Part shown: positions 6,173 through 47,380 of the stretch, piece after piece
Numbering within the stretch: the stretch's first letter is position 1
Layout: each line of letters opens with the position of its first letter
From: an uncultured delta proteobacterium
GTDB taxonomy: Bacteria > Myxococcota_A > Polyangia > Fen-1088
Length of the DNA: 64,000 nucleotides
Assembly (NCBI GenBank): GCA_963767925.1
Contig: CAVYGB010000006.1
Coordinates: 288,001-352,000, forward strand
Direction of reading: 5' to 3'
Program-made: the position numbers and the translations under genes
The notes under the pieces: generated by a model
Databases searched by the model: none
Seen by the model: only the letters and a program-made list of their open reading frames with translations
Told to the model about the DNA's origin: nothing

Positions 6173-6256
6173 CCCCGGGTGCGAGGCGCGGCGCGGAGGG
6201 CGCCCTCGGGTCGGGCGCGGCATACTTGAAGGCCTGATCGAGGCACCGCTCCCATT

Positions 6257-6303
6257 GTTCGCCCTCGCCCCGCGGCAGCGGGGAGAGGGGGGGGTGAGGG
6301 GTC
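6257..6303 (+). repeat. BoxC/REP-like hairpin repeat, copy 1
   Basis: GTTCGCCCTCGCCCCGCGGCAGCGGGGAGAGGGGGGGTGAGGGGTC between convergent genes; further copies at 15089, 15218 and 45027. Confidence 0.85.
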
Positions 6304-15088: not shown

Positions 15089-15264
15089 CCCCTCACCCCC
15101 TTTCTCTCCCCGCTGCGCGGGGCGAGGGCGAACGCTCGGCGAGGTGCCTGGATCAGCTTCCAGGCCGACTCTGCCGCGGCTCGCGGCTTGCTCGAGATCC
15201 CCGCTCCCCCATTGCCCGTTCGCCCTCGCCCCGCGGCAGCGGGGAGAGGGAGGGGTGAGGGGTC
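15089..15264. repeat. Inverted pair of BoxC/REP-like repeats (copies 2 and 3)
   Basis: 15089-15133 is the reverse complement, and 15218-15264 a forward copy, of the repeat at 6257; the pair lies between convergent genes. Confidence 0.85.
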
Positions 15265-41605: not shown

Positions 41606-41742
41606 AGCCGCCGCGCGGCCGGCCTTGATTGGCCGAAGCGGCCTTTCAAGATCAGGTCCGCCATGGGGGTCCTTGTGGGTGCCGCCGCTCTTTCGGCGAA
41701 AGGGTGGTCAACGTTTCCACACGGTCAGGCGGTAATCAACTC

Positions 41743-42759
41743 GTGTCTTTGACGAGGCGCGGCCTGCTGTCCTTGTCGCGGCCGCAGGCGGCCGCGACAG
41801 GCGGAGGGTACTGGCTGCACATCTCCCGGCGGGCGATGGCGTGCAAGTTCGAGGTCACCTTGCCCTCCGAGCTGGCCGAGAAGATGGACGAGGCCACCGC
41901 CGCGCTCGACACGGTCGACGAGATCGAGGACGAGCTGACCATCTTCCGCAGCTCGAGCGCGCTCGCCCGCATCAACCGCGACGCCGCCGATCAGCCGGTC
42001 GCCGTCGGCGAGGACCTGTTCGCCCTGCTGGCGCTCTGCCAGCGGCTGCACCGGGCGACCGCCGGCGCCTTCGACATCACCTCGACCCCCCTGTCCCGGG
42101 CCTGGGGCTTTCTCAAGCGCGAGGGCCGCCGCCCCACCGACGCCGAGCTGGCGGACGCGCGGGCCCGGGTGGGCATGCAACACGTGGCCCTCGATCCGGC
42201 GGCGCGTACGGTCCGCTTTCTCCGACCGGGCATGGCCCTCAACCTCGGCGCCATCGGAAAGGGCTATGCCCTCGACCGGGTGGGCGCGCAGCTTCTGCGC
42301 GCCGGCGTGTTCACCGCGCTCCTAACCGCGGGGGCCAGCAGCATCAAGTCGCTCGGCACTGGCCCCGACGAGACCGGGTTCAAGGTCGGTATCCGCGACC
42401 CGGCCGCGCACAAACGCCGGTTCGGCAGCTTGCTGCTCGCCGACCAGGCGCTGGGAGTCAGCGGCGCCGGAGAGCAGTTCTTCGAGGTGGACGGCAAGCG
42501 CTATGGCCACATCATCGATCCGCGCACCGGCTGGCCGGTCGAAGGCCGCGCCCTGGTGGCGGTGACGGCTCCGAGCGCCGCCCTGGCCGACGCGCTCGCC
42601 ACCGCGTTTTTCGTCGGCGGACGCGACGTGGCAGAGGCTTACATTCGTGAAAATTCTGATGTGAGTGCCGCCCTCATAGATACGTCACTTATGAATGGAA
42701 ATCGGCGTGCAATCGTTCTCGGTGAGGCTTTAGAGTGGAATCTCCCAAATGCTGCGTAA
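41743..42759 (+). CDS. apbE: FAD:protein FMN transferase (ApbE)
   Basis: AMACKF, SALARIN, GAFDIT, NLGAIGKGYALD, VGIRDP, GHIIDPRTG and ADALATA motifs. Confidence 0.92.
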   Translation: MSLTRRGLLSLSRPQAAATGGGYWLHISRRAMACKFEVTLPSELAEKMDEATAALDTVDEIEDELTIFRSSSALARINRDAADQPVAVGEDLFALLALCQRLHRATAGAFDITSTPLSRAWGFLKREGRRPTDAELADARARVGMQHVALDPAARTVRFLRPGMALNLGAIGKGYALDRVGAQLLRAGVFTALLTAGASSIKSLGTGPDETGFKVGIRDPAAHKRRFGSLLLADQALGVSGAGEQFFEVDGKRYGHIIDPRTGWPVEGRALVAVTAPSAALADALATAFFVGGRDVAEAYIRENSDVSAALIDTSLMNGNRRAIVLGEALEWNLPNAA

Positions 42760-43294
42760 TCCCATGACCGCATTGACCGCACTCCAGCAGACGACCCTGG
42801 TGCTGCTTCGCACCGTCATCGGCTGGCACTTCCTTTACGAGGGTTACTTCAAGTTCCGGCTCCCGGCCTGGACGCCCGACGGCCAGCCGCTCGCGGCCTG
42901 GACCTCGAACGGCTTCATCCGCGCCGCCACCGGACCGCTGGGCGGGCTGGCCCGCGCGACCGCCGAAGCGGGGCTGTTACCCTGGATCGATCGCGCGATC
43001 GTGTTCGGTCTGCTCGCGGTCGGCATCTCGCTGATCCTCGGTTTTCTCACCCGGGCGGGGTGTATCGGCGGGCTGCTCCTGCTGGCGATGTTTTACCTGA
43101 CCGCCATTCCCACCGCGGGTCTGCCCCAGACCGGCGCCGAGGGGACGTACCTGATCGTGAACAAGACGCTCATCGAGGGCCTGGCCGTGCTCGCGTTGCT
43201 CGCGTTCGACACCGGTCGCATCGCTGGACTGGACCGGTTCTGGGCAGAGCGCAGCTCCCGGCTCTATCCCTCCCCTTCTCTGCAGCGGCCCTGA
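42749..43294 (+). CDS. DoxX/DoxD family membrane protein
   Basis: [32 protein letters not shown] and GLDR motifs; 4 TM segments; start may be 42764. Confidence 0.85.
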
Positions 43295-43310
43295 CATAAA
43301 GGAATCGACC

Positions 43311-44603
43311 ATGAACCTCACGGATGAGCAGAAAGAGATCGGTCGCCGCAACTTCCTGAAGGCGCTGGCCGGTACGCCGGCGCTGGCGGCGCTGGCCGGT
43401 GCGGCCGCGGTGAAGGGCCCCAAGAAGGGTGGCCCCGTAAAGGCGGCGCTGGTGGGCGCGGGCCGCGAGGGCCGGGTGCTCCTGGGGCAATGCCAGAAGC
43501 AATGGATCGACATCCGGGCGGTGGTCGACATCAACCCGCTGCACGCCCGCGCCTCCGCCGAGGGCCTCGAGAAGAGCGGCCTGACTCGCCCCCGCGAGTA
43601 CCAGGACCTCAAGGCCATGCTCGAGAAGGAGGACATCGAGGCGGTGCTCGTCGCGACGCCCCTCTGGGCCCACGCCGACACGACGGTCGCCTGCCTCGAG
43701 GCCGGCAAACACGTGCTGTGCGAGAAGATGATGGCCTGGGACGTGGAAGGCTGTCACCGCATGAGCGAGGCGGCCCGCAAGAACAACCGCCTGCTCGAGA
43801 TCGGGTACCAGCGCCTCTACAACCCGACTTACCACGCGGCCTACGACGGCCTGCTCAAGAAGGGCCTGCTCGGGGACGTCTATTACATCCGCAACGTCTG
43901 GCACCGGAACGAGTCCTGGCGGCGCGAGGAGAAGCCACCTTCGCCGGACTTCGATCCCAAGAAGTGGGGCTACGAGAACTTCGAGCACCTGGTCAACTGG
44001 CGCCTCTACCCCAAATATTCGCGCGGCCTGCTGGCCGAGCTGGGCAGCCACCAGGCCGCCATCGCCAACTGGTTCTACGGCGGGGCGCCCGACGCGGTCT
44101 ACGCCTCCGGCGGCATCCACCGCTTCAAGGACGGGCGCGAGATGAACGACCACATCTACGCGACCTTCGAATATAGCGGCGGCCGCACGATGACCTTCAC
44201 CTCGATCCAGTCGAACGCCTTCGACGACTACTACGAGCAGATCCTGGGGACCAAGGGCACCCTCATCCTCAAGCGGGAGACCGAGGCTTACTTCTTCCCC
44301 GAGGGAGATCCCAAGGCCACCACCGTGGCGGTCACCTCGCGCAGCGGAAACGCCATCGTCGACGCCTCCGAGAGCCGGACCGCCGACGTCGCCGGTCGCA
44401 CCGTGGCCGCCGAGGCCCAGGGCGAGCGCTTCCCCCGCCTGCTGTCGTACCGCAACGAGATCAACGGCTTCGTCTCCGCCATCCGCAGCGGCACCCCCCT
44501 CAACTGCGGCCCGGAAAAGGCAACCGCCAGCGCCACCGCCTGCATCCGCGCCTACGAGTCCTGCGACCAGAAGACCCGCCTCACCCTCGCCCGCCCGACG
44601 TAG
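43311..44603 (+). CDS. Gfo/Idh/MocA oxidoreductase with Tat signal
   Basis: AAGGA RBS; GRRNFLK signal; [32 protein letters not shown] and ELGSHQ motifs. Confidence 0.92.
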
Positions 44604-44987
44604 TACCCGGGACCCTCAAAGGGTCCCGATCCCCCCGCGAAGCTTCGCGCCGAGCAAGCTCGGCGGCTCCGCAGTTTCATTCTACCCGGGACCCTCAAAG
44701 GGTCCCATCCCCCCGCGAAGCTTCGCGCCGAGCAAGCTCGGCGGCTCCGCAGTTTCATTCTACCCGGGACCCTCAAAGGGTCCCGATCCCCCCGCGAAGC
44801 TTCGCGCCGAGCAAGCTCGGCGGCTCCGCAGTTTCATTCTACCCGGGACCCTCAAAGGGTCCCGATCCCCCGCGAAGCTTCGCGCCGAGCAAGCTCGGCG
44901 GCTCCGCAGTTTCATTCTACCCGGGACCCTCAAAGGGTCCCGATCCCCCCGCGAAGCTTCGCGCCGAGCAAGCTCGGCGGCTCCGCA
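44604..44987. repeat. Tandem array of about 4.9 copies of a 79-bp triple-hairpin unit
   Basis: Units start at 44604, 44683, 44761, 44840 and 44918. Unit: TACCCGGGACCCTCAAAGGGTCCCGATCCCCCCGCGAAGCTTCGCGCCGAGCAAGCTCGGCGGCTCCGCAGTTTCATTC. Copies differ only by 1-nt deletions. Confidence 0.97.
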
Positions 44988-45026
44988 CGCGAATATTCGG
45001 GACCCGGTCGGGGCTCATCGCTGGTT

Positions 45027-45075
45027 GTTCGCCCTCGCCCCGCGGCAGCGGGGGGGGAGAGGGAGGGGTGAGGGG
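45027..45075 (+). repeat. BoxC/REP-like hairpin repeat, copy 4
   Basis: GTTCGCCCTCGCCCCGCGGCAGCGGGGGGGGAGAGGGAGGGGTGAGGGG. Confidence 0.82.
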
Positions 45076-45232
45076 CTCCGGGGCCGACATCGGTGAGGGG
45101 CGAGGGGGCTGGAGTTTTCGGGCCTACCTGGGGTGGAGCGATGCTCCGGGCGGTTGGCGGCTCTGCACGATCGGGGCTCAAGGTGAAGAGGGATTCCGCA
45201 GATGGGATAGGTGCCTATCGGCGGAATTCCTA

Positions 45233-47380
45233 GTGAGCCAACCTAGACGAACCACCAAATCGGTCGGGGCTATGGCCCTGGCTTTCACCCTTTTCGGTCA
45301 GTCCCTCCGCGCGCAAGCTGGCGGGGACATAGAGGAGGTCGACCTCGCGGCGCTGCTGAGCACGCCCGAAGAGGTCTGGACCGCCACCAAGACCGAGCAG
45401 AAGAACTACGAGGCGCCCGCCATCATCACCACGGTGACGCGGGAGCAGATCGGGGTGTGGGGCTATCGCTCCATCTCGGAGGTGCTCAGCCACTTGCTCG
45501 GGTTCTACGTGGTGGATGACCACACCTCCCCCAACCTGGCGGTGCGGGGCATCTCGGGCGGTCTGTACGCCGACAGCAGCATCGTCAAGGTCCTCATCGA
45601 CGGACAGTCGGTCGCGTTTCACTCCACCGGCGGCAACTGGCTGGGGCCGGAGCTGATCCCCCTCTCCGCGGTCGAGCGCATCGAGGTCGTGCGCGGTCCC
45701 GCCTCGGCGCTGTTCGGCGCCGACGCCTTCCTGGGGGTCATCAACATCAAGACCCGCAGCGGCAAGAGCCTGACCGGCGCCACCGCCTGGCTGGCGGGCG
45801 GACGGGCGGGCACCAAGCTCGCCACCGACATCGACGTCTCGGCCGGCTTCGAGAAGGGCGACTTCGACGTCGTGGTGGCCGTGCGGCAGAGCAACCAGGA
45901 TCTCTCCGGCCTCACCATCCCCGACAGCTCCCCGGCCCCCTCGGTCCCCAACAACGGCGGCGAGGAGCCGCTGACCGCCGAGGGCCTGGACCAGGCCTCC
46001 AGCTCGGCCCTCGCCCGCGTCACCTACCGGCCGCGCACCGGCACCGAGCTGGGCGTGTTCGGTTACTACTCGTCGATGCGCCGGGGCGAGGAGTTTGGCT
46101 CGCTCTTCCAGCTCGTCAACAACCGGGTGTCGCTGTCGCAGATGCGGGCCGGCCTGTTCCTCGAGCAGACCCTCACCCCCACCCTGCGCCTGTCGTTCAA
46201 GGGCTCGGTCTTCCGGGGCGGGCCCGGGGACGACAACCGCCTGGAGGTCGGCAGCGAGTTCTATTACGTGCGCCGCCAGTTCGGCTTCCGGGGCGGCGAC
46301 GTGGACGGCCAGGTGGAGTGGACGCCCGGCTGGGCCAAGGACGGCTCGGTCCGGCTGGTGGCGGGCGCCAGCGCCTTCCTCGACGACGAGCAGCTCCCCT
46401 CGCGGGTGGGCATCTCCAAGCAGGCCACCGACCTGGTCCAGCCCGGCGACGTCATCGCGCCAATCTCGATCTACCAGGGGCGCAAGAGCTTCCTCAACTC
46501 GGGCGTGTACCTGCAGGGCATGTGGACGGCCATCGAGAACTGGCTCAGCCTCACCGGCGGTCTGCGCTACGACCGGCATAACGTCTACGGTGGCCAGATC
46601 AGCGAGCGCGTCGGCCTGGTCTCGAACCCGCTGTCCAACTTGCACGCCAAGCTGCTCTACGGCAGCGCCTTCAAGTCTCCCTCGCCGCTGCTGCTGTACG
46701 CCATCCCCTCGGCCATCGGGGACGTGGTGGGCAACCCCCAGCTCAAGCCCCAGTTCGTGCGCACGGTGGAGTTCCAGCTCGCCTGGGAGCCGACCGACTA
46801 CATCAGCCTGTCGGGGAACACCGCCTACAACGTCCTGTCCGACAAGACCGAGTTCGTGCAGCAGGGGATCAACAAGGTCGCGCGCAACGTGGCCCGGGCG
46901 GCGACGCTGACCTGGGAGCTCATGGGGGAGTACAAGTACCAGTCGGTGTTCCGGGCGCACCTCAGCTTCGAGACGCAGCGGACGGTGCGGCGGACGGGGC
47001 AAGACGGCTACTCGGCGGAGGTCGTGGGGGACGCGGGGGGGATCTATCCCAACATGATGCTGCACGGGGGGCTGGCGGCGCAGCCGACGAGCTTGCCGTT
47101 GCGGGCGACCGTGCAGGCTTCCTGGATCGGGGAGCGGCGGCCGAGCGATACCAACATCCTGCTCAACGGGGGGCCTTATGTGTTGCCCTCTTATTTGCTG
47201 CTCGAGGCGGGGCTGGCGACGACGCGGTTCGATCTGTTCGGGCTGGACCGGCACGAGGTCTCGTTTGCTTTGACGGGGAAGAACCTCCTCGGTGCGGGAG
47301 GGCCGGCGCCCGGCTTCTCCGGCGTCGACTACCCGCTCACGCCGCGCACCTTCTTCCTGCAGGCCAACCTCGCCCTCTGA
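45233..47380 (+). CDS. TonB-dependent receptor (YfiR-associated type)
   Basis: Signal peptide; DIEEVDLAALL..TATKTEQ..EAPAIITTVTREQI; plug motifs VKVLIDG and VERIEVVRGPASALFGADA..GVINI; GLRYD, GNPQLKP, GKNLL; C-terminal PRTFFLQANLAL. Start is 45233 (GTG) or 45272 (ATG). Confidence 0.92.
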   Translation: MSQPRRTTKSVGAMALAFTLFGQSLRAQAGGDIEEVDLAALLSTPEEVWTATKTEQKNYEAPAIITTVTREQIGVWGYRSISEVLSHLLGFYVVDDHTSPNLAVRGISGGLYADSSIVKVLIDGQSVAFHSTGGNWLGPELIPLSAVERIEVVRGPASALFGADAFLGVINIKTRSGKSLTGATAWLAGGRAGTKLATDIDVSAGFEKGDFDVVVAVRQSNQDLSGLTIPDSSPAPSVPNNGGEEPLTAEGLDQASSSALARVTYRPRTGTELGVFGYYSSMRRGEEFGSLFQLVNNRVSLSQMRAGLFLEQTLTPTLRLSFKGSVFRGGPGDDNRLEVGSEFYYVRRQFGFRGGDVDGQVEWTPGWAKDGSVRLVAGASAFLDDEQLPSRVGISKQATDLVQPGDVIAPISIYQGRKSFLNSGVYLQGMWTAIENWLSLTGGLRYDRHNVYGGQISERVGLVSNPLSNLHAKLLYGSAFKSPSPLLLYAIPSAIGDVVGNPQLKPQFVRTVEFQLAWEPTDYISLSGNTAYNVLSDKTEFVQQGINKVARNVARAATLTWELMGEYKYQSVFRAHLSFETQRTVRRTGQDGYSAEVVGDAGGIYPNMMLHGGLAAQPTSLPLRATVQASWIGERRPSDTNILLNGGPYVLPSYLLLEAGLATTRFDLFGLDRHEVSFALTGKNLLGAGGPAPGFSGVDYPLTPRTFFLQANLAL

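Follow-up and report, generated by a model that had tools for sequence, protein, structure and literature searches.

The stretch of DNA analysed here, 64,000 nucleotides long and referred to below as the window, holds a head-to-tail array of near-identical units between two co-oriented genes. Upstream, on the + strand at 43311-44603, is the gene for a 430-aa Gfo/Idh/MocA oxidoreductase with a TAT signal (Pfam PF01408, PF22725, PF02894 and PF10518) that ends with the TAG at 44601-44603, and downstream, on the same strand at 45233-47380, is a TonB-dependent receptor gene (Pfam Plug and TonB_dep_Rec_b-barrel). The likely receptor start is GTG 45233 or ATG 45272, with the ORF open from 45068 and homology to the related genome G001 running from about 45301; the gene thus begins about 230-270 nt past the end of the array, in keeping with the ~250 nt given in an earlier note on this DNA. 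The row of ORFs upstream of the receptor at 41629-44603 (a gene for an ApbE-family flavin transferase, a 181-aa ORF without a Pfam match, and the gene of the TAT-signal oxidoreductase) may be a periplasmic flavinylated redox module tied to uptake. Between array and receptor, at 45025-45075 on the + strand, lies a G-rich hairpin repeat (..CGCCCTCGCCCCGCGGCAGCGGGG..GAGAGGGAGGGG..) that gives 236 BLAST hits in this genome and numerous ones in G001; it had been labelled 'BoxC-like', a name we find unsupported, and it belongs to a different and very abundant repeat family of this genome. Scans of 44400-45400 returned no sigma-70 promoter and no terminator-like site with a U-tract consensus, and ARAGORN found no tRNA or tmRNA gene. 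The Rfam search that had been proposed for the unit yielded no match when run on this region and six other loci, with only chance-level microRNA-type hits at permissive thresholds and nothing near gathering scores.

TRF reports the array as a tandem repeat at 44604-44987 with a period of 78, 4.9 copies, 98% matches and a score of 754. Its units start at 44604, 44683, 44761, 44840 and 44918 and follow one another directly, the first four being 79, 78, 79 and 78 nt long and the fifth diverging past 44987. The earlier note had described a spacer-less array of five near-identical units that begins on the base after the oxidoreductase stop codon and is followed by a degenerate sixth start, and all of this is borne out. 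A CRISPR array is ruled out, as the units are contiguous with no unique spacers between the repeats. Unit 1 (44604-44682, 79 nt) is made up of a TACC leader, a first hairpin at 44608-44628 (hairpin 1), a C-rich linker at 44629-44636, a composite hairpin at 44637-44672 and the linker AGTTTCATTC; unit 2 (44683-44760, 78 nt) has one G fewer after hairpin 1, unit 3 (44761-44839, 79 nt) equals unit 1 exactly and unit 4 (44840-44917, 78 nt) has a C-run one base shorter. Unit 5 (44918-44997) closes with the usual family tail GCACGCGAATATT and not with the internal linker, and such a tail (...GCACGCGAT..) also terminates single copies elsewhere in the genome. It is followed at 44998-45005 by the sixth-unit stub, which is the 5' half of hairpin 1 (CGGGACCC) and, like all five units, is on the + strand. 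Similar stubs terminate other copies in this genome, and at 21 of 129 loci in relatives a regular expression for the half-hairpin motif matches no more than ~65 nt downstream, some of these matches being whole further units. No reading frame is maintained across units of 78/79 nt. The units of the window differ from one another by 1-nt indels at base runs only, which could be long-read errors in this 13-contig assembly. Caution on these differences is also suggested by one of the two groES copies of the genome (G000:C2:765692-765974), which matches as two overlapping pieces in different frames and so carries either a frameshift or a long-read indel error.

Each unit had been read as three back-to-back hairpins, a description of which only part stands. 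All three palindromes are present in unit 1 (CGGGACCCTCAAAGGGTCCCG at 44608-44628, CGCGAAGCTTCGCG at 44636-44649 and CGCCGAGCAAGCTCGGCG at 44648-44665), but they are not independent hairpins: the second and third share 2 nt, so the three palindromes cannot form simultaneously, and CGCGAAGCTTCGCG is peculiar to the subfamily of this genome and is unconserved elsewhere. We therefore reject the three-hairpin fold in favour of a two-hairpin fold, hairpin 1 followed by one long composite hairpin, which is both conserved and of minimum energy (-37.4 kcal/mol and z -3.5 for 44598-44682), with the C-rich linker between the two predicted to be single-stranded in every unit. The array as a whole folds well below its shuffles on either strand (z -10.5 on + and z -9.6 on -). 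Hairpin 1 is a 9-bp, 21-nt palindrome with a variable centre that keeps its sequence, whereas the composite hairpin, built of a CGCG/CGCG closing stem, a middle stem of 3-4 bp and a distal stem of 7-8 bp with an RRA loop, keeps mainly its pairing. Across the family the layout reads CGATC-NNN-TT, then CGGGACCC-TNNNA-GGGTCCCG, then 2-3 nt and a C-run, then CGCG-A(T)-GRG(C).., the 7-8 bp stem with its RRA loop, and ..(G)CYC-(G)A-CGCG-ATC. In two single folds a further closing helix pairs a 5' CGATC with a 3' GATCG, a feature we set aside because the junctions in arrays have a single GATC each.

A search of the whole genome (G000; 9.34 Mb, 71% G+C, 13 contigs) by BLAST and iterated nhmmer recovered 21 loci with ~40 units, and the unit thus belongs to a dispersed, non-coding, REP/BIME-like repeat family, as the earlier note had supposed. 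Five loci are tandem arrays of 2.5 to 7 units: besides that of the window there are seven 76-nt units of a diverged subfamily at C10:1646685-1647191, three units at C10:1256305-1256518, and ~2.5 units each at C10:1464507-1464712 and C8:2532339-2532537. Each of the five arrays has its own linker, and units are 94-100% identical inside arrays against a mean of 85% between loci, which fits local amplification and agrees with the suggestion that the array had been recently amplified. The closest relative of the window unit is a single copy at C8:3148996 (92%), which has the same GTTTCATTCTAC linker. Outside the family the genome also contains 26 solo GGGACCC/GGGTCCC hairpins, compared with 2 in a reversed-sequence control; C8:394663, C8:2879544 and C10:1550221 are examples, with 23 other sites, and several are followed by a T-run, like ordinary terminators. 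One solo hairpin with a T-run lies ~1.8 kb downstream of groES at C10:1552006, presumably about where groEL would be expected to end by length.

Beyond this genome, a covariance model built from 17 of its copies (R1) matched 50 of the 60 further genomes sampled from the same taxonomic family, all of them uncultured Polyangia. The matches cover 14 of 19 genera and range from 0 to at least 76 per genome. In a class-wide sample of 141 genomes, matches occurred in 14 of 16 genomes of family f1, 2 of 2 of f12 and 1 of 3 of f20, and there were none in the 27 other families of that sample. The exact hairpin-1 pattern was present in 106 stretches of a species-representative collection, and among the 80 matches listed all are in records titled uncultured Polyangia, Myxococcales, Myxococcota or 'proteobacterium' MAGs. 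An exact-pattern scan of species contigs that included the middle palindrome of G000 gave no match, whereas the shorter pattern did. Arrays of 2-4 units stand at 17 of 125 loci of relatives, in other assemblies, and no match to the element was found in the plasmid and phage collections. The array of the window is thus a locally multiplied copy of an undescribed ~79-base two-hairpin repeat family that lies behind stop codons in many uncultured soil myxobacteria.

The covariation analysis called for in the earlier note gave a strong signal. In 112 copies of relatives the cells pair at 91.9%, with changes on both sides in 17 of 23 pairs; none of 500 shuffles came up to this, and slid controls pair at 32-49%. 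These counts come from an alignment fitted to the model and from related copies and genomes, among which subfamilies may have multiplied as a whole. Covariation extends to all seven distal-stem pairs. The middle stem, which the model aligned poorly, was parsed directly in 100 of 155 distinct units, where GAG/CTC occurred 44 times, GGG/CCC 30 times and the crossed GAG/CCC once; it is fully paired in 79 of the 100 parsed units against a shuffle mean of 55, and no shuffle of 1000 was as high. The pairing is almost purely Watson-Crick, and outside the poorly aligned middle stem 12 G-U stand against 7 A-C, so that, with no clear excess of G-U, single-stranded DNA or the other strand could just as well be where the structure matters. 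Four loci (L136, L138, L148 and L159) have an extra hairpin of ~39 nt (..CCCCACGCGCG-TCC-GCGCGAGTGGGG..) inside the loop of the distal stem. The apparently orthologous L163 is without this hairpin, and the loops thus seem to be the target of a further miniature element.

Family members follow stop codons directly and in the sense orientation, whether in a 3'UTR or between two cistrons. With genes called by a GC3-based ORF heuristic, 10 of the 21 loci of G000 begin 0-7 nt past the stop of a co-oriented gene, and in the window 4 nt separate the oxidoreductase TAG from the first hairpin stem. We also took a census of 124 elements from relatives and G000 with at least 230 nt of flank on both sides, the loci for which were chosen by the exact hairpin-1 pattern (the 106 stretches) and are thus a biased set from genomes that are related and not independent: a co-oriented coding-like ORF ends upstream in 58 of them, and in 37 of these 58 the stop codon starts 5-8 nt before GGGACCC, i.e. 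1-4 nt lie between stop and stem. All three stop codons are used (TGA 22, TAG 22, TAA 14). On the 5' side, 30 of the 124 elements have an opposite-strand coding-like frame and for 36 no frame was detected, while on the 3' side there is a converging gene in 40, the stop of which often overlaps the GATCA or GATCTA tail. Between co-directional genes, 15 elements are sense and 8 antisense. Several copies are squeezed in between the stop of one gene and the ribosome-binding site of the next, and at three convergent gene pairs in G000 an array occupies nearly the whole spacer. The leader is AT-enriched, with T-A-R at -6..-4 and CTAG in many copies, and is of low information content.

Comparison with G001, a genome of the same genus with ~84% nucleotide identity, bears on how this position came about. 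G001 is without the element at all four loci compared, and at three of these the protein end is unchanged. At the oxidoreductase locus it keeps the oxidoreductase-receptor pair with no array, and both proteins end in ..RPT*, with TAG here and TGA in G001. At C8:2532 the G001 spacer is 175 nt of unrelated or decayed sequence behind the same protein end NADYRS*, and at C8:3148996 the protein end is of equal length, with TAA here and TGA there. The fourth locus, C10:1646, has 12 nt between convergent stops in G001 as against seven units in G000, and here the G000 protein takes two extra codons and its TAG from the element leader. The empty alleles thus all end in TGA (4/4), and the filled ones in TAG, TAG, TAA and TAG. 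For C10:1464 and C10:1256 only one flank could be matched in G001. A fifth comparison comes from the Pfam-confirmed groES-groEL spacer. Of the 29 genomes assessable there, 5 have an element that starts 3 nt past the native stop of groES (G054 and G002 of genus g2, G015 and G044 of g15, and G058 of g11); neighbours with nearly identical GroES have short, empty spacers, as do both groESL spacers of G000. Between the orthologous groES-groEL copies of G054 and G015 there is a compensatory change in the middle stem, GGGT/ACCC versus GAGT/ACTC. The five filled and empty comparisons place the element at the native stop, which points to targeted insertion or strong selection for position. In the G001 oxidoreductase-receptor spacer (L064 2430-3050, G001:C71) an opposite-strand ORF of ~200 aa takes the place of the array.

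In general kind this new family is REP/BIME- or MIRU-like, and it is unusual in its fixed relation to stop codons and has no RAYT link. REPs have a GTAG-type tetranucleotide at the 5' foot of the palindrome, and BIMEs combine the REP variants Y and Z in alternating orientation; here there is no such alternation, all units and both hairpins having one orientation, and the reverse-strand nhmmer matches come from the self-symmetry of each palindrome. MIRUs are direct repeats of 40-100 bp that stand in tandem within operon spacers, run in the direction of the operon and abut the upstream stop; their copy number varies between loci, and their units are described as having small frames that overlap the flanking stop and start codons. 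The tandem, gene-oriented units in operon spacers described here (including that between groES and groEL) are MIRU-like in this sense; unlike MIRUs, they are 78/79 nt long without a reading frame and are strongly folded. The 21-nt palindrome of hairpin 1, at 21 loci in ~40 units here and with up to at least 76 R1 matches in relatives, is what one would expect of a REP, and the five arrays of G000, each with its own linker, recall the tandem BIME clusters with fixed linkers. REPs and BIMEs are short GC-rich palindromic extragenic repeats of enterobacteria and pseudomonads (PMC3116915, PMC3337134). Like the present family, they occur outside genes in tens of copies per genome, often downstream of a gene or in the space separating two cistrons, and cluster as tandem mosaics in which the linkers are fixed. 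A REPIN is an inverted doublet of one REP that forms one long hairpin, whereas we see two unlike hairpins in one orientation. The family further differs from REP/BIME in its fixed distance of 1-4 nt behind the stop codon and in that one hairpin alone is sequence-conserved. A search of the literature on REP-type repeats found nothing comparable for myxobacteria.

In a REPIN-RAYT system the repeat flanks a cognate Y1 (HUH) transposase gene and co-occurs with it. The earlier note had asked for neighbouring HUH/RAYT genes, and a partner of this kind is not supported. G000 has 11 closely related Y1/HUH transposase-like genes (PF01797, ~230 aa, motif HVHLLVEA), located at C10:1274370, C10:706556, C10:1014814, C2:815154, C6:52814, C9:134756, C2:130424, C2:2017575, C6:81897, C2:1804660 and C6:378019. 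RAYTs are usually single-copy, and a multi-copy family of this sort is unusual. These genes share an upstream leader of ~50 nt beyond which their flanks align poorly, and the majority consensus of the weakly aligned flanks has GTGGGCA-type stretches unlike the element. In G000 kilobases separate these genes from the elements, their flanks show no alignment to the element, and a PF01797 match (E<=1e-5) is absent in 34 of 51 element-bearing genomes, several of them with 66-76 R1 matches, these genomes being incomplete MAGs. A REPIN-RAYT system is rejected on these grounds. Nor is the element a clear MITE, of which terminal inverted repeats and a target-site duplication would be typical: the former were not found, and no duplication recurs consistently among the copies. 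CGATC stands at both ends in about half of the copies in relatives and a half-hairpin stub follows some, neither consistently.

Two further kinds of structure at gene ends resemble the element. The ribosome termination structures (RTS) of Chemla et al. 2020 are stable mRNA structures just past stop codons of any kind, proposed to insulate against re-initiation (PMC7518266). The element shares with them a stable structure directly past the stop, in our case a 9-bp GC-rich stem at 1-4 nt in 37 of 58, but the RTS are a statistical property of unrelated sequences, while here it is one homologous repeated module that can be multiplied in tandem. Intrinsic terminators share with it a GC-rich hairpin at gene ends and differ in their U-tract, the hairpins of the element being followed by a C-run or mixed sequence, and a canonical terminator is rejected because no U-tract is found in 44400-45400.

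Taken together, we lean towards a reading, which we regard as somewhat probable, in which a structured intergenic repeat specific to this lineage has been amplified locally into the array and acts as an RNA hairpin barrier. The module would be transcribed with the upstream gene as 3'UTR or intercistronic RNA, and its hairpins would act in cis on that RNA to block 3'-to-5' exonucleases, which would protect the upstream message. They might also uncouple the terminating ribosome from downstream sequence, damp read-through and form a post-stop structure of the sort reported for the RTS to insulate against re-initiation (PMC7518266), in which case the five units here would set ten hairpins between the oxidoreductase and the receptor gene. 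Arrays would probably arise by slippage or unequal recombination between units, such that copy number could drift and the strength of the barrier change with it. Work in E. coli has dealt with REPs close to stop codons and tmRNA. Several observations stand against the barrier: orientation is not absolute (an opposite-strand frame lies 5' of 30 of the 124 elements, and the 15 sense copies between co-directional genes are met by 8 antisense ones), pairing is almost purely Watson-Crick with G-U not clearly above A-C, there is no U-tract terminator signal, and a passive barrier needs no specific partner while hairpin 1 is strictly conserved in sequence. This conservation hints at a specific binding partner whether the element is an RNA barrier or selfish DNA.

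The main rival to the barrier reading is in fact that the family is selfish miniature mobile DNA, for which a putative non-RAYT enzyme would recognise hairpin 1 in single-stranded DNA and insert the element by stop codons, the hairpins being kept for mobility and not for the host; we consider this possible but on the whole unlikely. It would account for the presence/absence polymorphism between same-genus genomes (4/4 loci), the patchy groES-groEL occupancy (5/29 genomes), the spread from 0 to at least 76 matches per genome, a hairpin 1 conserved in sequence next to a remainder that keeps pairing only, and the other small hairpin nested in some copies. The empty TGA at 4/4 loci against filled TAG or TAA also looks as if the element brings or needs TA. 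However, no candidate enzyme has emerged, the Y1 genes of this genome having other flanks and not co-occurring with the element, and there are neither terminal inverted repeats nor a consistent target duplication, nor any match in the plasmid or phage collections. Moreover, the compensatory change at an orthologous co-transcribed site and the copies wedged between stop codon and ribosome-binding site argue for constraint after insertion, and against selfish DNA.

A bolder version joins mobility to function, and we put it forward as a speculation that is rather doubtful. Here the element would be a mobile 'post-stop-codon module', placed at native stops either through some process able to sense where translation ends or through very strong selection for that position, with hairpin 1 read by a putative dedicated protein that sets mRNA 3' ends or the fate of the terminating ribosome, and with tandem copy number acting as a heritable dial for the two genes it separates. 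At one locus at least (C10:1646) the stop codon itself comes from the element.

It is very unlikely, to our minds, that the units are a source of small RNA, cut from 3'UTRs so that the C-rich linker (CCCCCC, or in some subfamilies CCUCCC, like the anti-Shine-Dalgarno core) pairs in cis or trans with G-rich ribosome-binding sites. In every unit the C-run is indeed single-stranded and held between two stable hairpins, a CCTCC linker is present in 10 of 143 units (linker statistics that are biased by the exact-pattern choice of loci), some copies stand a few bases ahead of a GGGAG ribosome-binding site, and the C-runs of the array are partly complementary to the downstream G-rich repeat (inverted-repeat pairs I1 and I2). 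Against this, the sigma-70 scan gave no promoter signal of the element's own, and a regulator would not usually be present in dozens of near-identical copies per genome.

Binding of nucleoid proteins or topoisomerase has been proposed for E. coli BIMEs, and a similar DNA-level protein binding site, in which the hairpin 1 palindrome is read as duplex DNA, could be considered here, although we think it highly improbable. The perfect palindrome of hairpin 1, conserved but for its variable centre, pairs that are almost all Watson-Crick, and the 26 further solo palindromes, versus 2 in the reversed-sequence control, would suit such a site. A duplex site, however, has no need to keep the pairing of a distal stem whose sequence changes freely, and the fixed stop-codon spacing and sense bias are hard to explain at the DNA level. 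Finally, an assembly artefact in which a long-read assembler expanded one unit is extremely unlikely in view of the five arrays at different loci of this genome and the arrays of 2-4 units at 17 of 125 loci of relatives in other assemblies, even though the units differ by 1-nt indels at base runs only and, among Logan contigs of public runs, none covers 44651-45060 (the best run had 22% of the sampled words).

REP/BIME-type repeats are well studied in enterobacteria and pseudomonads. The present family combines a fold that clearly covaries, the lack of a RAYT partner, a set distance of 1-4 nt from the stops of unrelated genes (groES-groEL included) and tandem multiplication, and these four features together make it a natural system for studying how structure past the stop affects termination, re-initiation and mRNA decay, and how such a module spreads. 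For the annotation of these soil genomes, the element explains numerous spacers between genes as well as some gene ends.

The G-rich hairpin repeat next to the array (..CGCCCTCGCCCCGCGGCAGCGGGGAGAGGGAGGGG..) has further copies in the window at about 6255-6301 and 15218-15262. It also forms a tandem array of its own, 7 x 81 nt at G000:C2:1390782-1391348, in which its core is joined to another small hairpin, and tandem two-hairpin units of ~80 nt are thus a recurring theme in this genome.
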